The notes beneath the pieces were generated by a model. It was not told the origin of the DNA. It made no database searches and saw only the letters and a program-made list of their open reading frames with translations. Below are positions 5,086 to 56,015 of a stretch of DNA of 64,000 nt, piece after piece. Where the stretch lies: the IMG/VR virus record IMGVR_UViG_3300049460_000371, positions 1 through 64,000 of that record; one strand, given 5' to 3'. The position numbers and the translations under genes are program-made. The DNA comes from a virus. Positions within the stretch are counted from its first letter, which is position 1. Each line of letters starts with the position of its first letter.

Positions 5086-5781
5086 ATGCGTTTTTCAGAA
5101 ATTTATAACTTGACCCAGCTCGATGAAACTGAATTGAGTGAGAAACAAACGGTACCGGAATATGGTACCGAATCTTATGGTACCTGGGAGATCAAGTACC
5201 GCAATGTCAAAAAGAATGGTAAGTTTGATGCTATGGGTATGCACAAACGCAATCCAAACATCCCTCGTGCAGCCTCTGATACAGTTGAAGATGCCATCGC
5301 TGATGTGAAAAAGCAAATCGACCGTTACATTGCCAATGATGACCAAGTGTTGAAATATAGCAAAGGTCAAATCAACCTCAATGCCGAGTTCACTCGTGAG
5401 TGTCTGGAACATGGCCCAACTGGTATTCGATTGTCTCGAGTCGGCGATGAAAGCATTTTGACTCTGTGCAGTCCTGAATATGCGGAGCTGGGCCCTGAAG
5501 TGTATGGCTCAGGCGAAGGTCAATTCACCAAACTGTTCCAGCGTAAACCAGGCACTGGCGATGAAGCTGGTGGCGCCGCCACTTTGTACTTGGCTGGTAT
5601 TACCACCAACAAGATTCGCCAATTGGGTCTTCAACCGAACGGACGTTACTCGTTGCAATATGTGGGCAAGGATCCGGAATACGGTCACCTGGTCTACAAA
5701 TTGATCTTCGACAGCATTACTGCCGGCCCAACCGATAAACAGCGCCTGCACACGCCTGGCTTGACGTTGGCGGTGTCATGA
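5086..5781 (+). CDS. late protein, putative virion-internal
   Basis: TAAATA at 5052-5057; N-terminus MRFSEI..LDE. Confidence 0.7.
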   Translation: MRFSEIYNLTQLDETELSEKQTVPEYGTESYGTWEIKYRNVKKNGKFDAMGMHKRNPNIPRAASDTVEDAIADVKKQIDRYIANDDQVLKYSKGQINLNAEFTRECLEHGPTGIRLSRVGDESILTLCSPEYAELGPEVYGSGEGQFTKLFQRKPGTGDEAGGAATLYLAGITTNKIRQLGLQPNGRYSLQYVGKDPEYGHLVYKLIFDSITAGPTDKQRLHTPGLTLAVS

Positions 5782-6050
5782 GATTTAGAGAATTTGCCCA
5801 CTACCGAGTAATAGTCGAGCTCGATGAAGATCGCTACGTTGGTGTCAATTATAATTTGAGTGGTCCCTGGCCTTCGCGTAGTATGAATGATAAGAACAGT
5901 TACTTGTTAGATGATCCGGAGATCTTGAATATTCAAGTCTACGATATCGATACAGGCGCTGAGATTACATCTACAATCACACCACATGAGCGGTCAATGA
6001 TTAAGGACTCAATTGCCACGGATCTAAATAAAGAAACTCGTGGCTATTGA
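5778..6050 (+). CDS. late protein with MRFREF N-terminus
   Basis: ATGA overlap with upstream gene. Confidence 0.7.
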   Translation: MRFREFAHYRVIVELDEDRYVGVNYNLSGPWPSRSMNDKNSYLLDDPEILNIQVYDIDTGAEITSTITPHERSMIKDSIATDLNKETRGY

Positions 6051-6061
6051 GTTCCTAAATA

Positions 6062-6220
6062 AAGACATGAAGTAGAGAAGATTTTGACCTTAGGACCTTG
6101 TTATCGTTAAGATGGCAAACAGGCGTCAAAAATGGCTGTCGCAGCCAGTTGGGGTGATTCGCTACCATTCCAGCAAACAGTGAACCGAGGGGAGCATCTT
6201 GCAGTGCTCCCCTCACCTTT
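6062..6220 (+). ncRNA. candidate structured non-coding RNA
   Basis: TAAATA 6056-6061, three stems, possible pseudoknot, terminator hairpin 6187-6214, no long ORF. Confidence 0.55.
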
Positions 6221-6272
6221 TGGAATTTCACTTTCCCTTTGCAAACTTACCAGTTGCCAGTAAAATGGCACT

Positions 6273-6560
6273 ATGATAAGTCATCGCGTCAAATCCTTCC
6301 TGTATGGAATTTTCGGGTCTCGTCTGCCACGAGTCGACGTGCCTGCTCATCAGTTGCATTACTATACAAAATTCATTCATAACGATATTGATCCGTATAT
6401 CATGAAGCCACTTGAATGGTTTAATAACCCCGAGTTAGTTCAATGGTTACGGGGAATTCCGCATCATATTGCTATGGATGACTATGACCGAGCCCAACCC
6501 AAATTCACGATAATTTTTCATCGTGATGCCGATGCTGTTATGTATCGTTTGAGGTACTAA
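6273..6560 (+). CDS. DA.LFKL-family small protein
   Basis: LVQWL...FHRDADAVMYRLRY. Confidence 0.75.
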   Translation: MISHRVKSFLYGIFGSRLPRVDVPAHQLHYYTKFIHNDIDPYIMKPLEWFNNPELVQWLRGIPHHIAMDDYDRAQPKFTIIFHRDADAVMYRLRY

Positions 6561-6898
6561 TGAAAAAGTTTATGTTTGGTAAGCTCGCCAATAAACTACG
6601 TCTCGGTACTGTGATTGACTATCCAGCGGCGTGCCGGGAACTTTGCCGCGATGTGACCATTCATGAACAGGATTATGACAAGGGTGTGAACATATTCATG
6701 GCCAAGTTTCGTGAAACTTCAATGTGGAACTGGCTGCAACAATGCGATGGTTATGCGTTGACTATGCAAGCAACCATGGATTACGGCGCACTCAATATTA
6801 TGGATTGGTATCAACCAATATACCTGAATATCAACATCGGAGAGATCCGATTTCGTAACGCCGTTGATGCGGCGACATTCAAACTGTCCTTCCCATGA
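6560..6898 (+). CDS. DA.LFKL-family small protein
   Basis: WNWL...FRNAVDAATFKLSF. Confidence 0.75.
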   Translation: MKKFMFGKLANKLRLGTVIDYPAACRELCRDVTIHEQDYDKGVNIFMAKFRETSMWNWLQQCDGYALTMQATMDYGALNIMDWYQPIYLNINIGEIRFRNAVDAATFKLSFP

Positions 6899-7320
6899 TG
6901 CCCAGCCTACTTGACCGATTTAATGAGATGATAATCGCTATCATTGACAGTTTGTTTGGTATGGGAGTGTTCATCATTCATGTAATGCGAACATTTTGGA
7001 CTTGGTCTATTCGTGGTGGCTTCCCTCAAACCCGCAACGATCTGACGACTGTGGTTCATACTGGATCTCCTCTGCTGCAAGGCAGACAAGTCCAAGTTCA
7101 TATGTATGAGACCTACAGCATGGACTCGTATCCGATTTTCACTGTTAGTGAGAAGTATTTGACACTGGAGTTTAAGGAGTGGCTCAAGGCCTCAGGAGCT
7201 TATAAAATTTCAGTCTTTGAACCATTTCACTCGTCTATCCATAGTCGTTACATCGTGATCTACTTTAGCAGCGAAGCACAAATGGCACTATACAAACTAA
7301 CTTGGGGTTGTGATGCTTGA
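6895..7320 (+). CDS. DA.LFKL-family protein with hydrophobic N-terminal segment
   Basis: FKEWL...FSSEAQMALYKLTWG. Confidence 0.75.
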   Translation: MMPSLLDRFNEMIIAIIDSLFGMGVFIIHVMRTFWTWSIRGGFPQTRNDLTTVVHTGSPLLQGRQVQVHMYETYSMDSYPIFTVSEKYLTLEFKEWLKASGAYKISVFEPFHSSIHSRYIVIYFSSEAQMALYKLTWGCDA

Positions 7321-7738
7321 ATTCATATTGACGGTAATACTGCATGTGCTGGATAAATCTGGGCTCGTGCCTGTGATTCAGTATTGCTATGAAGAGGTGC
7401 CCTCCTTTGTGTCTCATATCTGGAATTGGTATTTCTGTCGCAATCCATTGAAGTGGTTCGATGAGTCAACAGAAATCATGATTCGTAATCATACCAAATG
7501 GCCAGGAAGATCCTTATTCCATTTGATCAAATATATACCCAAGCACGAAGGGGATATGGTTCTTTCTACGTATGATACCAATTGGGTCATTAAGCCCAAT
7601 TTGAAAGAGTGGTTGGCGGGAAATGGGCCAAACCAGTTTAAGGCACTGATCAACTTGGAAACAGGCGACATTCATGTGCGGGTCAAGTTTGCATCTGCGG
7701 ATGATGCCGTTATGTGTCGCCTGTTGTGGTCAGCTTAA
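7310..7738 (+). CDS. DA.LFKL-family protein
   Basis: LKEWL...[15 protein letters not shown]. Confidence 0.75.
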
Positions 7739-8061
7739 ACGCCGAATGAATTGCCGCAACCGCATGTGGTGGTTGCTTGTGGATTCTTGATGCTGAATTG
7801 ACTACCCATAAGGTCTTCCACATAGTCCACTACCGCGCCTTCCAGGTATTGGGCACTCATCGAATCGACCAAAAGTTCATGCGTGGTTTCACCCAGTTTA
7901 ATCTGAAAGTCGTCTTCATTAACCGCGTCGTCGAATGTGAAGCCGTAGCTAAAACCAGAACAGCCACCACCTTGAACAAAAATACGCAGACGTGTTCCTG
8001 CTGGCTCTGAAGCCAACAAGTCAATTACTTTTGTGGATGCTGCATCAGTTAGTGTTACCAT
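7735..8061 (-). CDS. erpA: A-type iron-sulfur cluster insertion protein, ErpA-like
   Basis: [40 protein letters not shown]. Confidence 0.92.
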
Positions 8062-13741: not shown

Positions 13742-14224
13742 TTGCAAGATGCCGCAACACTTGAAGACTTTGCTGAACATACCGGCCAAGCTCCTCACCT
13801 ATATGTCTGGGAGATCAACTATTTTCCAGAACGCTCTCAACACCTGTTGACCTTACCTGAATGTCAATCACTCATCAATCTTATTTGGGTTGATCAGCTT
13901 CATCTACAAGGTGATCCGCCTGTCGTGCATGACGGCAGAGGGTCACGGTGCGCACGAACATTTGAGTCTCGCATCTATCTGCCTCGCTGGGCAAGAAATC
14001 CTATGGTTGTCATCCATGAGCTTGCGCACTGTGTAACTGACCTGTTCGATTCAGATGATAGTCAGGCACATGGGCCGCGTTATATGAAGGTCTACCTGTC
14101 ATTATGGGCCATCAACTCGTCATATAAATATCCAGCATTGCGCAAACACGCAAATCGCAATGGTCTTCGGGTTAGTCCGATAGACATGATGAAAAAGTTG
14201 AAAGGATTTCAAAGATGGAACTGA
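13742..14224 (+). CDS. SprT-like zinc metallopeptidase
   Basis: VVIHELAH...HGPRY; start codon ambiguous. Confidence 0.7.
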   Translation: MQDAATLEDFAEHTGQAPHLYVWEINYFPERSQHLLTLPECQSLINLIWVDQLHLQGDPPVVHDGRGSRCARTFESRIYLPRWARNPMVVIHELAHCVTDLFDSDDSQAHGPRYMKVYLSLWAINSSYKYPALRKHANRNGLRVSPIDMMKKLKGFQRWN

Positions 14225-18333: not shown

Positions 18334-18753
18334 TTGATCGCTGCCCATTACCATACTGAAAACTATGGAGCAATAATGGGCAGCATTGTCACAATCAAAA
18401 TTTCGGGCGATTCGGATCAAGAACAGATGGCGGTATTGGGTCGAGTGACTCAGATGCTTGAGTATTTGGGAATCCAGGTCACATACGAACGATCCGAAGT
18501 CAGACAAGAACTTTTTCAGCATGCTGATACTTGGCGAGACAAGTTAGTTGAGTTGGCGCCAACCGTTCATGTTATTAAAGAACAGTCACAATCGACCATA
18601 CGCCAATCACCCACGACTGCTTGGCCGATATGGGCAAAAGAATGCGTCAAGGTGGAATCGTCGTATAATGAAAAATATGATGACGAAGCACGTCAGATAC
18701 AGATCACCCAACATATCTTGTCCCAGATTAAAAGTAGAAAGAAAACGCCATGA
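18334..18753 (+). CDS. hypothetical protein
   Basis: ORF coupled to tyrS; true start probably a downstream ATG. Confidence 0.65.
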
Positions 18754-28361: not shown

Positions 28362-28999
28362 ACCAATCGACCGCATTCTGGGCTCAATGGATTGAGCTAC
28401 AACTAAAACACAACCTGGATCGCATGGTCGATCTCAGCATCAAGAATTTTCACTTCCCAGGGCTCAATTACGTTTGCTTCGACTTCATGCCGCACCAAAC
28501 GATTCGCCTCTACATCATCGATCCATCCAGCAAGCCGATCGATACCGAGAACGTACAGATCCACAATCACCTGTACGATAGTCAGATCCTGGTGCTGCAA
28601 GGCCACATCACCAATCGTGTCTACAAGCTGAATAACACTCGTGATGACTATAACGCATACGAGCTGACGTCCGCGCTACATCCAGACAATCATGACCGGA
28701 AAATCAAGCTCAAACACTTGACCAAACGTGGCTTGGACGAAGTCAAGACTATCGAATTACATCCTGGCGATATGCACTATCAGCCCCACACTGAAATTCA
28801 TAATGTCACGAATGATCAGTCGCTCTTTACAGCATTCATGGTATTCGAGTTTCCGACTGTGAAGAAACATTCAGTAATCTGGACCCGAAAGGAATACCCG
28901 GATCTAACCATTCCAACCCCAGACGCATACTTGAAATACGAACCACAGGAACTCAAAGCTTTGGTGACGCGTATGCTGGAGCAAATGAAAATTAGTTGA
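28358..28999 (+). CDS. cupin-fold protein (cysteine dioxygenase-like motif)
   Basis: IHNHLYD..ILVLQG ... EIHNV. Confidence 0.6.
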   Translation: MNQSTAFWAQWIELQLKHNLDRMVDLSIKNFHFPGLNYVCFDFMPHQTIRLYIIDPSSKPIDTENVQIHNHLYDSQILVLQGHITNRVYKLNNTRDDYNAYELTSALHPDNHDRKIKLKHLTKRGLDEVKTIELHPGDMHYQPHTEIHNVTNDQSLFTAFMVFEFPTVKKHSVIWTRKEYPDLTIPTPDAYLKYEPQELKALVTRMLEQMKIS

Positions 29000-32395: not shown

Positions 32396-33418
32396 ATGCT
32401 ACTGCTTACCCGCCAACAATTCAATGACGCTGTATTCCAGCGCGACAAACACAAGTGCGTCGTGTGCGGGGCAACGAACGACTTGGCTGCCCACCACATT
32501 CTCGAGCGTCGTCTGTTTGACGATGGCGGGTACTATGTGGAAAACGGTGCTACTGTCTGCCCTGAACATCACATGGAAGCAGAGATGACGACGCTGAGCG
32601 TGAAGAAAATTCGCGAACTGTGTGGGATCACCAATCCCGTTATGCCAGAGCATTTTTACGTAGACGACGAGTACGATAAGTGGGGCAACACCATATTACC
32701 AAATGGTTCCCGCACTCGCGGCGAGCTATTTGAAGAAGAGCCTGTGCAGAAAATGCTGAAAGCTGCTGGTGTCCTGGATAGTTTCCTGGAGATAGTCAAG
32801 TATTGCCGTACGTTCCACGCTACGTGGTCCCCTGGTTGTGAGGGCGATGACAAGATGCACAAGGCCATGACACAGTTTGTGGGCAAAGAATGTTACGCGT
32901 CGCAGAAACGTGATGGCGAAACCACAGCCTTGTATCCTAATAACTTCCATGCTCGTTCACTGGATGGTCGGCATCATCCAAGCCGCGACTGGGCAAAAGC
33001 GCTGTGGGGTCGTATTCGCTTTGACATTCCAGAAGGCTGGCGTATCAATGGCGAAAACTTGTACGCCCAGCATTCGATCGGCTACGATGACTTGACTTCG
33101 TACTTCGAGGTCTTCAGTATCTGGGACGAAAATAATCGCCGTTTGCCACTGGATGACCAGTTGGAATGGTGCGAAATCTTGGGGCTGACTCATGTGCCAG
33201 TTGTATGGCGTGGCATTTACGACGAAGATGCCCTTAAAGCATTGCCAGTGACCTTGGGCTGGGATATGACCAAAGTTGAAGGCTATGTGATTTCGTTGGT
33301 CGAATCGTATCACTTCAGCCAAGCGCGTAAGAACCTGGCTAAGTACGTTCGCAAAAATCATGTACAGACAGGTGATCACTGGATGTTCCAGGCCATCACC
33401 CCGAACAAACTGAAATGA
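32396..33418 (+). CDS. HNH endonuclease domain fused to RNA ligase (ATP-dependent nucleotidyltransferase)
   Basis: RDKHKCVVCG..AHHI..NGATVC..HH; KRDGE, GENL, FEVFSIWD, EGYV, KYVR. Confidence 0.85.
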   Translation: MLLLTRQQFNDAVFQRDKHKCVVCGATNDLAAHHILERRLFDDGGYYVENGATVCPEHHMEAEMTTLSVKKIRELCGITNPVMPEHFYVDDEYDKWGNTILPNGSRTRGELFEEEPVQKMLKAAGVLDSFLEIVKYCRTFHATWSPGCEGDDKMHKAMTQFVGKECYASQKRDGETTALYPNNFHARSLDGRHHPSRDWAKALWGRIRFDIPEGWRINGENLYAQHSIGYDDLTSYFEVFSIWDENNRRLPLDDQLEWCEILGLTHVPVVWRGIYDEDALKALPVTLGWDMTKVEGYVISLVESYHFSQARKNLAKYVRKNHVQTGDHWMFQAITPNKLK

Positions 33419-53954: not shown

Positions 53955-56015
53955 ATGACGGCCAAGATCAAGAAGGAAATGGCAGCGCTGGCCAAAGAGG
54001 TAGCGCGCCATCAAAAGCTGTATTACGAGGAGAATGACCCCGTAATTACGGACGGCGAGTACGACGTCATGTATCGCCAACTGGTGGATCTGGAAGAGCA
54101 GTATCCCCAGTACAAAGTAAAGAACTCGCCAACCGACAACATCGGCGGCAAACCGTCCGGCACCTTCACGGAGATCAAGCACCTGATCCCCATGCTGAGC
54201 CTGGGCAATAGTCTGAACGCGGCCGACACCCAGGTGTTCCTGGATAAAGTATGCGCCGAACTGAAGATCAAACCGGCCGCCCTCGAGCTGTACGAAGAAC
54301 TCAAGTACGACGGCCTGTCGTGCTCTGCCACTTACCTGTATGGTAAGCTGGAACAAGGCGCCACTCGCGGTGACGGTCTGACCGGCGAAGACATCACGGC
54401 CAACCTGAAAACTGTCCAAAACGTCCCACACGTCATCAACGAGCTCTTGGAAGTACCGCGCTTCGAGATTCGCGGCGAGGTACTGATGACGCGTGCGAGC
54501 TTCAAAGCCCTGAACGAACGTCAGGCCAAGCTCGGTGGCAAGATCTTCAGCAATCCCCGCAATGCGGCCGCAGGTGCGCTGCGCAATAGCGACCCGGAGA
54601 TCACTCGCGAGCGTGGACTGCACTTCTACGCCTACAGCCTGGGCGCATGCAGCGACGAAATCTATCCAAAAGTTGACGGCGGCATTTCGCCTGATCCATT
54701 CGGCGTGACCACGCAAGAGCAACTGCTGGCCAAGTTCGTCAGCCTGGGCTTTGTGACGGCTAGCGACCTGAAAGTCGTAACTGCTGACAAGGTGCTGGAA
54801 AGCTTCAAGGAAATTCAAGCCAAGCGTCCCGACCTGCCATACGAAATCGACGGCGTGGTATACAAGGTCAACAAGCTGGCCTATCAAGTTCAGCTGGGCT
54901 GGAAGTCGCGCACGCCTGAATGGGCAACCGCGTACAAGTTCCCGCCTGACACTGCTGAAACGGTGCTGCTGGCCATCGACATCCAGGTAGGTCGTACTGG
55001 TGCGCAGGCGCCGGTTGCTCGTGTAAAACCGGTCAAGTGCGGCGGGGTGATCGTAACCAACATCACCCTGCACAACATCGAAGAGATCACGCGCAAAGAT
55101 ATCCGCATTGGCGACACGCTGCTGATTATGCGTAACGGCGATGTGATTCCTGGTGTCAGCCATGTTATCAAGGACAAGCGCCCGGCAAACGCTGTCCCGT
55201 ATGAAATGCCAGGCGTTTGCCCATCCTGCGGCGGCGCTACCCACAAGGAAGACGACGGTGCGATCACGTATTGCCTCGCCGGCCTTGGCTGTCCTGCTCA
55301 AGTGTTGGGTGCAATTTCCCACTACGTTTCGCGCAAGGCCATGGACATTGACGGCATTGGCGACTCGACCATTCAGACGCTGCTGGATGCCAACCTGATC
55401 AAGATGCCAAGCGATCTGTACTCGCTGAAAAAAGAAGACGTGCTGGGCCTGGAAGGCTTTGGTGAGTCGTCGGCGGAGTTGCTGGTGAACGGCGTGCATG
55501 CGATCAAGAAACCAGAATTGCGTCGCTTCATTTACGCGCTGGGCATTCCCAATACGGGCGAGGGCACCAGCAAGCGCTTGGCTGAGCACTTCGGTTCGTT
55601 TGACAAGTTGCTGGCCGCAGCACACAATGAACTGATGGCGATCCCGGACATCGGCAAAACGACCGCCAGCAGCATAAGTGACTACCTGTTCGACCCAGTA
55701 ACGGGCGTGGAAGCGCGCAAGCTGGCTAAGATCCTGGAGCCTCAAGATCTGGTCAAGGTCGACACCAGCGTGATGAAGCTGAAAGGTCAAACGTTCCTGG
55801 TCACTGGTACGCTGTCAGTGAAGCGCGACGTGATCCATAAGCTCATCGAAGAAAACGGCGGTGTGGTCGCTGGCTCGGTGAACAAGGATCTCAACTACTT
55901 GCTGGCTGGTGAAGAAGCGGGTAGCAAGCTGGAGAAAGCTGAGAAATTGAACGGCAGCAAAAAGGCAAATATCAGTATCATTACGGAAGAAATTTTCCGC
56001 TCAATGATCGCATAA
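53955..56015 (+). CDS. ligA: NAD-dependent DNA ligase
   Basis: ELKYDG, TRGDG..GEDIT, NPRNAAAG, IDGVVYK, QVGRTG, Zn finger, HhH, BRCT. Confidence 0.98.
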   Translation: MTAKIKKEMAALAKEVARHQKLYYEENDPVITDGEYDVMYRQLVDLEEQYPQYKVKNSPTDNIGGKPSGTFTEIKHLIPMLSLGNSLNAADTQVFLDKVCAELKIKPAALELYEELKYDGLSCSATYLYGKLEQGATRGDGLTGEDITANLKTVQNVPHVINELLEVPRFEIRGEVLMTRASFKALNERQAKLGGKIFSNPRNAAAGALRNSDPEITRERGLHFYAYSLGACSDEIYPKVDGGISPDPFGVTTQEQLLAKFVSLGFVTASDLKVVTADKVLESFKEIQAKRPDLPYEIDGVVYKVNKLAYQVQLGWKSRTPEWATAYKFPPDTAETVLLAIDIQVGRTGAQAPVARVKPVKCGGVIVTNITLHNIEEITRKDIRIGDTLLIMRNGDVIPGVSHVIKDKRPANAVPYEMPGVCPSCGGATHKEDDGAITYCLAGLGCPAQVLGAISHYVSRKAMDIDGIGDSTIQTLLDANLIKMPSDLYSLKKEDVLGLEGFGESSAELLVNGVHAIKKPELRRFIYALGIPNTGEGTSKRLAEHFGSFDKLLAAAHNELMAIPDIGKTTASSISDYLFDPVTGVEARKLAKILEPQDLVKVDTSVMKLKGQTFLVTGTLSVKRDVIHKLIEENGGVVAGSVNKDLNYLLAGEEAGSKLEKAEKLNGSKKANISIITEEIFRSMIA

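Follow-up and report, generated by a model that had tools for sequence, protein, structure and literature searches.

The 64,000-nucleotide (nt) stretch of DNA analysed here, called the window throughout, is the first 64 kb of the IMG/VR virus record IMGVR_UViG_3300049460_000371 (87,353 nt, rated 23% complete). Judged from its sequence, the interval 6068–6222 on the plus strand appears to be a stand-alone, non-coding small RNA gene and the record's single copy of a widespread, uncatalogued family of phage RNAs. The feature is real and uncatalogued, being absent both from Rfam and from the literature that was searched. Its scaffold covaries across the family, and the blocks that the family keeps constant are complementary to one region of the 23S ribosomal RNA (rRNA). 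We consider it probable, if only moderately so, that this late stand-alone phage RNA functions by base-pairing with the 23S rRNA of its host, and we have much less confidence in any particular consequence of such pairing.

The RNA lies in a 222-nt spacer (6051–6272) flanked by two open reading frames (ORFs) of the plus strand, 5778–6050 and 6273–6560; the unit spans about 6068–6222, with a core at 6083–6194. Its parts are listed below, with the source of each prediction.

6056–6061 (plus strand): TAAATA, a core resembling late promoters of the T4 type, from the sequence, 21 nt upstream of the model match
6083–6194 (plus strand): body of the RNA, matched by the covariance models R1 and R2
6082–6088/6125–6131 (plus strand): helix P1, UUUUGAC/GUCAAAA, from RNAfold, masking part of the blocks
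6087–6097 (plus strand): block m1, ACCUUAGGACC (in DNA letters ACCTTAGGACC), complement of E. coli 23S 1921–1931
6098–6105/6111–6118 (plus strand): hairpin P2, UUGUUAUC/GAUGGCAA, 8 base pairs (bp) with loop GUUAA, from RNAfold and covariation
6120–6128 (plus strand): block 2, CAGGCGUCA (family core AGGCGUC), complement of E. coli 23S 1827–1835
6133–6147 (plus strand): hairpin P3, UGGCUG/CAGCCA, from RNAfold and covariation
6139–6142 (plus strand): UCGC in the loop and top of P3, the 5′ strand of the family pseudoknot
6148–6174 (plus strand): hairpin P4, GUUGGGGUG/CAUUCCAGC, from RNAfold, presenting the loop block L4
6148–6156/6166–6174 (plus strand): arms of P4, GTTGGGGTG/CATTCCAGC, with loop ATTCGCTAC, from the sequence
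6156–6166 (plus strand): loop block L4, GAUUCGCUACC (in DNA letters GATTCGCTACC), in the loop of P4
6158–6166 (plus strand): UUCGCUACC within L4, complement of 23S 1929–1937
6175–6186 (plus strand): single-stranded tail AAACAGUGAACC, in which GUGA (6180–6183) is the 3′ strand of the pseudoknot
6187–6196/6205–6214 (plus strand): terminator-like hairpin GAGGGGAGCA/TGCTCCCCTC, then ACCTTTTGG, from the sequence and RNAfold
6187–6221 (plus strand): the terminator-like unit GAGGGGAGCA/UGCUCCCCUC with ACCUUUU, a 10-bp G+C-rich hairpin, from RNAfold

RNAfold gave the plus strand of the spacer −70.5 kcal/mol, against a shuffle mean of −54.8 kcal/mol (z −3.31, none of 200 shuffles as good), and the presumed transcript 6068–6222 gave −55.8 kcal/mol (z −3.36, 2 of 200 shuffles as good), while the opposite strand was unremarkable (z −0.93, 38 of 200 as good). 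The predicted fold of the spacer has four hairpins and an outer stem, and in it the AGG of block 2 pairs with CUU 6089–6091. These are the helices already listed in an initial annotation of this DNA, and every stem and motif that it had named was recovered in place: TAAATA, P1, the inner helix 6099–6105/6111–6117, the hairpins at 6133–6147 and 6148–6174, AGTGAA at 6179–6184 and the terminator hairpin. A stand-alone structured RNA on the plus strand, as it had suggested, is supported (z −3.3 on the plus strand, −0.9 on the minus), as are a late-promoter-like TAAATA upstream of it and a terminator-like hairpin downstream. The ORFs of the spacer are all of 58 amino acids (aa) or fewer and have no ribosome-binding site, in keeping with its view that no credible ORF is present, and ARAGORN found no transfer RNA (tRNA) at the site, which it had likewise held not to be a tRNA. 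The proposed check against Rfam left the novelty intact: with Rfam 15 at the gathering threshold there were no matches in the window or in 13 family-member loci, and with permissive filters and an expectation value (E) of up to 10, applied to 5900–6400, no match fell within 6085–6317. Permissive scans of the window and of the member loci gave matches at chance level only, the weak ones near the RNA stemming from a separate hairpin at 6002–6057.

BLAST against GenBank phages gave no match for the spacer, for its 2.5-kb surroundings or for two family members, the conserved blocks being too short for BLAST, and a search of IMG/VR by single flanking proteins gave no relatives. An alignment of the homologues of a 231-aa protein encoded upstream of the RNA led to three syntenic metagenomic loci (L002, L006 and L007), whose spacers, before small paralogous ORFs, have ACCTTAGGAC, AGG(C/T)GTC and GCTACC in common with the window; the letters of the intervening hairpins differ among the three loci and the window. 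A first scan of IMG/VR with a gapped DNA pattern on the first two blocks, subsequently filtered for the third, gave members in unrelated phage contigs. The pattern was too loose, and most of its 96 viral stretches, and probably all of its 120 bacterial ones, are chance matches. A second scan, for which AGGCGTC and the loop block were the sole requirements, yielded 109 stretches, in most of which the 5′ block reappears although it had not been demanded.

The family is carried by very different phage lineages, from T4-like phages to half-megabase genomes. Members of its long type, to which the window belongs, consist of P1, P2, P3, P4 and the tail, whereas those of the short type have neither P3 nor the tail, and P4 itself is the terminator. 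The member closest to the window in architecture lies on a phage contig of 523,836 nt (L257); its terminator hairpin differs in sequence from that of the window, and the same CACCUUUU follows both. One further member (L014 26–107, minus strand), directly 3′ of a tRNA gene, is without the loop block and keeps the pairing between the P3 loop and the tail.

The seed of the first covariance model, R1, comprised 32 long-type sequences, the window among them, with a structure written by hand; the model matched the window at 6083–6188 with 34.7 bits. It gave 71 matches (E up to 0.001) in 100 phage loci of the second scan and only one, a weak one of 18.6 bits, in 702,853 nt of bacterial control sequence (100 loci), these controls being chance matches of the loose first pattern. 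That match (L126 4632–4738, plus strand, E 0.003) lies on a contig of a Fibrobacter succinogenes metagenome-assembled genome and has the 5′ block and AGGCGTC without the loop block. The second model, R2, was built from the 71 R1 matches with the window excluded, and the pseudoknot was written into it in place of P3. It recovered the window at 6083–6194 (27.8 bits, E 4e-5) as the sole match in the 64 kb and in the 87-kb record, placed the window's helices P2, P3 and P4 in family register, and matched 62 of 64 sources, L002 and L065 being the two without a match. In the 62 aligned members the m1 core CUUAGGACC, which the second scan had not required, is at least 95% conserved. The window carries the blocks by which the family was tested, namely this core, AGGCGTC at 6121–6127 (the middle block, of family form AGG(C/U)GUC) and L4 in the last hairpin of the scaffold.

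RNAalifold was uninformative on a plain MAFFT alignment (7 pairs, −2.2 kcal/mol), and the structure was therefore written by hand and the covariance models were used to realign the sequences. In the resulting alignment of 62 sequences, 79.6% of cells are standard-paired as compared with 60.1% after shuffling (none of 500 shuffles as high), and the covariation score is 0.414 as compared with 0.137 in shuffles and 0.03–0.08 with the partners slid by 1–3 columns. All five pairs of P2 change on both sides (91.0% of cells paired) and all four pairs of P3 covary (89.3%), as do seven of the eight pairs of P4 and five of the six in the pseudoknot, each changing on both sides. The alignment was fitted to the model, a procedure that favours the structure, but the slid controls and an independent permutation test speak against an artefact. 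The scaffold of P2, P3 and P4 with the pseudoknot is conserved, with many compensatory changes. P1 shows almost no covariation (one of nine pairs), and its 5′ strand is kept as sequence, not as a pair. That the spacer holds nothing other than chance hairpins without function is scarcely credible in view of these results: a single-sequence fold z of about −3 is admittedly not rare, but the covariation of the family, the model match and the conservation in unrelated phage contigs refute such an origin.

The family pseudoknot joins the loop of P3 to the 3′ tail, and its two strands change together between lineages, for example CCCCCA/UGGGGG, CCUACA/UGUAGG, CUCAC/GUGAG, GGUAC/GUACC and CCUCCG/UGGAGG. 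For the 30 distinct sequences among the 32, the longest complementary runs between loop and tail averaged 4.70 in matched and 3.71 in mismatched combinations, and none of 5000 permutations reached the observed value. In the window this pseudoknot has four pairs, UCGC 6139–6142 with GUGA 6180–6183, of which one is G–U, and in a six-pair register there are two flanking mismatches; the R2 alignment sets GUCGCA opposite AGUGAA, with four standard pairs. The homologues in phage metagenomes that the initial annotation had proposed to collect and test for covariation exist and covary, as the 62-member alignment shows, and the pseudoknot that it had suspected is real in the family, but the tail finds its partner in the loop of P3 and not, as had been proposed, in that of P4. 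The pairing of TTCGCT with AGTGAA can be drawn in the window (6 bp including one U–G) and is not conserved: 9 of the 30 distinct members (the window and the AGUGAG class) reach 6 bp and the rest reach 3–5 bp, and a pseudoknot of the tail with the P4 loop was rejected as a family feature. As for function, the choice had been left open between a ribozyme, a decoy, a packaging RNA and a regulatory RNA. Nothing in the analysis supports a ribozyme or a packaging role, and the conserved blocks now point to base-pairing with host 23S rRNA.

With E. coli rrlH as the 23S reference, the 13-mer consensus of m1 is the exact complement of 1919–1931 (13 of 13 positions) and the L4 core is the complement of 1929–1937, so that the two blocks together cover one continuous 19-nt stretch (1919–1937) in permuted order. 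The perfect complements in the window itself are to 1921–1931 (11 nt), 1929–1937 (9 nt) and 1827–1835 (9 nt); after a UU bulge, GUUAU 6100–6104 complements 1916–1920, as read by hand, and the TTCGCT loop of P4, which is invariant in the family, is in the window complementary to 23S. Opposite the 23S letters 1919–1920 the 5′ block varies between members, the forms being GGACCGU, GGACCAU and, in the window, GGACCUU with the bulge. The perfect complements of 8 nt or more that 75 distinct family RNAs have in 23S are concentrated at 1919–1937 (60–123 per position), at 1828–1834 (48, with 48 of the 75 RNAs matching there) and at 1968–1976 (5–11), and no other 23S position has more than 13 matches. 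The third of these sites is reached by variant loops, that of L036 complementing 1968–1976 and that of L050 1971–1978, while the L019 type is a contiguous 17-nt antisense of 1921–1937, preceded by a stretch that, by reading, complements about 1967–1973. The variant-loop members were found without any demand on the loop block, and as their loops complement neighbouring 23S stretches, it is apparently the target and not the sequence that is conserved. Several other ideas were set aside once the 23S complement emerged: mimicry of an anticodon loop, of the sarcin-ricin loop or of the anti-Shine-Dalgarno sequence, a ribozyme resembling pistol, and a leader pseudoknot of the kind found in T4 gene 32.

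By inspection, 23S 1830–1834 is complementary to 1969–1973, and because of this mutual complementarity the two would be the strands of one rRNA helix, which we take to be helix 67. To judge from the complementarities, the family seems to address both strands of one rRNA helix, block 2 on one and the alternative loops on the other. The blocks presumably target the side of domain IV that lies at the subunit interface, namely helix 69 (its 3′ strand), the linker, helix 70 and helix 67 (its 5′ strand), and all blocks would address strands that meet at one domain IV junction. The stretch 1912–1945 (34 nt) shows 100% identity in 20 of the 23 records that match it in the phage collection; these records are in fact rRNA of eight bacterial genera of the Proteobacteria and Firmicutes (Klebsiella, Listeria, Dickeya, Acinetobacter, Paenibacillus, Escherichia, Staphylococcus and Salmonella). 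This identity of the target across distant bacteria may be the reason why the same blocks recur on different scaffolds. Duplex energy was tried as a test of rRNA targeting and rejected, being not significant for two of the window's three blocks; the block 2 duplex is best on the whole 23S rRNA at 1827–1835 (−17.3 kcal/mol, none of 60 shuffles as good).

Several points weigh against 23S pairing as the function of the RNA. The duplex energies against the whole 23S rRNA are not exceptional for m1 with the P2 arm (7 of 60 shuffles as good) or for L4 (27 of 60), and among 1500 shuffled RNAs, 1429 complement 23S somewhere over 8 nt or more. Since shuffled sequences complement 23S so commonly and the energies are unexceptional, the case rests on the invariance of the blocks, their clustering at one junction and the variant loops, not on energy; the invariance of AGGCGUC and L4 is moreover partly imposed by the search patterns in most members. 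The pairing is proposed from complementarity. In the folded RNA, part of m1 and of block 2 is sequestered in P1, and the target bases are, we assume, themselves paired in mature ribosomes. The window also departs from the better members of its family: it is the second lowest of the 62 R2 matches, its TAAATA stands at a gap of 21 nt where 3–9 nt is usual, and its pseudoknot, of no more than 4 bp, is in competition with the pairing of the tail to the P4 loop and with the two uppermost pairs of P3. Nor is it obvious how a phage would benefit from disabling ribosomes late in infection.

The constancy of the blocks could also be that of a protein-binding or decoy RNA that never pairs with rRNA: the blocks would then be bound by a protein of the host or the phage, perhaps one that acts on this part of domain IV, and their complementarity to rRNA would be incidental. 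Such an RNA would fit the conservation of the blocks as sequence without covariation (helix 1), as well as the presence in many long-type members of CCUUAGG together with its partner CCUAAGG, the latter having the letters of 23S 1924–1930; the two would form a small rRNA-like duplex that a protein might read. However, L4 is replaced in the variants by loops that complement neighbouring 23S stretches, as would be expected of a nucleic-acid target and not of a protein-binding site; one type is plain contiguous antisense, and no partner gene is conserved. We regard a decoy of this kind as improbable.

Accepting the complementarity, one may instead suppose that the RNA is a guide or adaptor, which pairs with 23S sequence (in the rRNA, in its fragments or in rDNA) and recruits an enzyme, which might be a nuclease (RNase III, for instance), a modifying enzyme or an RNA ligase, or that it anchors a cargo, or itself, to ribosomes. 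On the 19-nt strand 1919–1937 the duplexes of m1 and L4 would lie end to end and form a helix of nearly two turns, the covarying pseudoknot scaffold is more elaborate than plain antisense requires, and the phage encodes an RNA ligase. We nevertheless consider a guide unlikely, as no conserved protein partner was found, the neighbouring genes varying by lineage, and no catalytic or protein-binding motif was recognised.

TAAATA fits the T4 late-promoter consensus, and 14 of its 23 copies on both strands of the record are intergenic according to a crude ORF map, which assigns 12.2% of the DNA to that class. Across the family, TAAATA is present at most 50 nt upstream in 41 of 61 members, as compared with 2.6% of random windows, and the gap is mostly 3–9 nt; in 37 of the 61, four or more T in a row occur near the 3′ end. 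A simple terminator scan omits the hairpin at 6187–6214 because only four T follow it and the scan needs five. Between this terminator and the next ORF there is a sigma-70-like promoter (TTGCAA, 16 nt, TAAAAT; 6239–6266), and the downstream ORFs therefore need not depend on read-through. TGGCACTAT was also considered as a repeated phage promoter and was rejected, as it has 3 copies in 87 kb, 1 of them intergenic.

These signals bear on whether the RNA acts in cis, either as a 3′ untranslated region that stabilises or terminates the transcript of ORF 5778–6050 or as a leader or attenuator for the paralogous ORFs downstream. The genes on either side of the RNA do run in the same direction, the upstream ORF ends in a strong hairpin, and in the short type a ribosome-binding site and a small ORF follow within about 30 nt of the terminator hairpin. 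Yet the genes adjoining the RNA differ between lineages (a phrog_639-like regulator with a DNA polymerase, ParB-like, endolysin-like, unknowns), which argues against a cis role as well as against a fixed protein partner. The varied downstream genes and the promoter between the element and the next ORF also set it apart from riboswitches and attenuator leaders, 41 of 61 members have a TAAATA of their own just upstream, and a cis element would leave unexplained why three blocks are complementary to one rRNA region. A cis role therefore seems to us distinctly improbable.

If the RNA does function by pairing with 23S rRNA, the following course of events may be envisaged. A discrete transcript would be made late from the TAAATA promoter and end at the 6187–6214 hairpin, and its exposed P4 loop would start pairing with 23S 1929–1937. 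P1 would then open, the 5′ block pairing with 1916/1921–1931 and block 2 with 1827–1835. The likeliest substrates would be free or still-assembling 50S subunits, in which the target region has yet to be locked. With helices 67, 69 and 70 held open by the pairing, the domain IV junction would stay unfolded, and 50S maturation or subunit joining would be hindered; we take the junction of these three helices to be the bridge-forming face of the 50S subunit. In its fullest form the proposal is that many unrelated phages make a small pseudoknotted RNA against the domain IV junction (helices 67, 69 and 70), three strands of which it would bind, and that they thereby control host ribosomes, either marking them or preventing late 50S maturation or subunit joining; it would be the first natural antisense against bacterial rRNA. 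We put this forward tentatively, as somewhat less than an even chance.

The surroundings of the RNA suggest that the window comes from a very large phage, since it encodes a tyrosyl-tRNA synthetase, an RNA ligase and an NAD-dependent DNA ligase. The only sequencing run listed for the record, possibly the source of the contig, is a rhizosphere DNA metagenome. Four auxiliary genes typical of very large phages were found.

7735–8061 (minus strand): IscA-like Fe-S assembly protein
18750–19964 (plus strand): tyrosyl-tRNA synthetase
32396–33418 (plus strand): RNA ligase with an HNH-like N-terminus
53955–56015 (plus strand): NAD-dependent DNA ligase

The hairpin at 6004–6056 (plus strand; −25.1 kcal/mol, z −6.8, none of 200 shuffles as good) covers the stop codon of ORF 5778–6050 and stops where TAAATA starts; it may end or process the upstream transcript. 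Further upstream, the 231-aa protein (5086–5781, plus strand) has 10 homologues, all metagenomic and 50–87% identical, without a family assignment, and its gene lies 300–900 nt upstream of the RNA in three syntenic phages. Downstream there are four tandem ORFs (6273–7738, plus strand) of 95, 112, 141 and 142 aa, which are paralogue-like and have in common a C-terminal motif D-A-x-x-F/Y-K/R-L. The same small paralogous ORF family lies 3′ of the RNA in the syntenic loci L002 (5759–6761) and L006 (3518–4400); Pfam gave no match for any of the four, and PHROGs none for the first, the only one scanned. The small ORF that follows short-type members was considered as a homologue of the 231-aa protein and rejected, the A1 profile giving no match at E up to 10 among the collected downstream ORFs. 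ARAGORN also called a 92-nt tRNA-Asp at 13973–14064 (plus strand); Rfam at its gathering score finds no tRNA anywhere in the window, and the call is doubtful, having no Rfam support and lying inside ORF 13742–14224.

With these results an anonymous spacer becomes an annotated RNA gene. Phages take over ribosomes with proteins. If the pairing is real, a conserved viral RNA in which the only constant bases complement a 23S stretch that is among the most conserved and is central to function would be a new class of tool for host take-over, and the family would provide the first natural antisense pair of a small RNA and an rRNA in bacteria and a new viral route to ribosomes. A search of the literature, covering titles and the openings of abstracts, found no description of a phage RNA complementary to 23S rRNA. 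Because the target is identical across distant bacteria, the family would also offer a natural design for a ribosome-binding RNA.

The RNA of the window is a member of none of the systems that it most resembles, whether antisense RNAs, U3-type small nucleolar RNAs (snoRNAs) or group II introns, or of any Rfam family. The trans-encoded and loop-presenting antisense RNAs of bacteria, plasmids and phages have a seed and an intrinsic terminator, and in CopA/CopT and RNA I/RNA II pairing is initiated by kissing loops. Like them, the window RNA has a promoter-like motif, a terminator-like hairpin and conserved unpaired bases in a loop and near the 5′ end, and presumably acts by Watson–Crick pairing on a target made elsewhere. 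Unlike them, it would be directed at an rRNA and not at a messenger RNA or a replication primer, with three blocks, of which two are permuted with respect to the target, and a conserved pseudoknot scaffold. The universality of that target could account for the spread of the family over very different phage lineages.

U3-type snoRNAs chaperone precursor rRNA by base-pairing at multiple sites, and bacteria are not known to use rRNA-chaperoning RNAs of this type. The resemblance is that one small RNA would grip several strands of an rRNA junction and block native helices; the differences are that there is no homology in sequence or structure and there are no box C/D or H/ACA elements, and that the RNA is encoded by a virus against its host and does not serve the cell's own ribosome assembly. 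In group II introns, the exon-binding sites EBS2 and EBS1 read the intron-binding sites IBS2–IBS1, and here too two separated elements would read one continuous strand, with the 5′-to-3′ order of the elements matching that of their adjoining targets; unlike those introns, the RNA is 110–155 nt long, has no intron domains or catalytic core and gave no Rfam intron match.

Among cultured phages, the gap between gp139 and gp140 of the Vibrio phage ICP1 is reported to give rise to the most abundant transcript of that phage, which is non-coding, unexplained and about 800 nt long (Barth et al. 2020, PMC7567579), as compared with about 150 nt for the window RNA; the parts of PMC7567579 consulted make no mention of rRNA complementarity. 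The sole match of R2 in 40 kb of ICP1 is weak (HQ641347 80988–81088, minus strand, L328 20988–21088; 10.7 bits, E 0.44), and the gap opens, 20 nt after ORF140, with a module-like stretch that has an m1-like block and an L4-like loop block with one change each. In the Rhodococcus phage Trina (NC_042040.1, L329), about 28431–28450 is contiguous antisense of 23S 1924–1943 at 19 of 20 positions, lies between the genes for lysin A and the tail spike in the same orientation as both, and is annotated as a 40-aa hypothetical protein. ICP1 and Trina seem, then, to carry related elements, and as possible experimental systems they would make the idea of a phage RNA that pairs with 23S rRNA directly testable.

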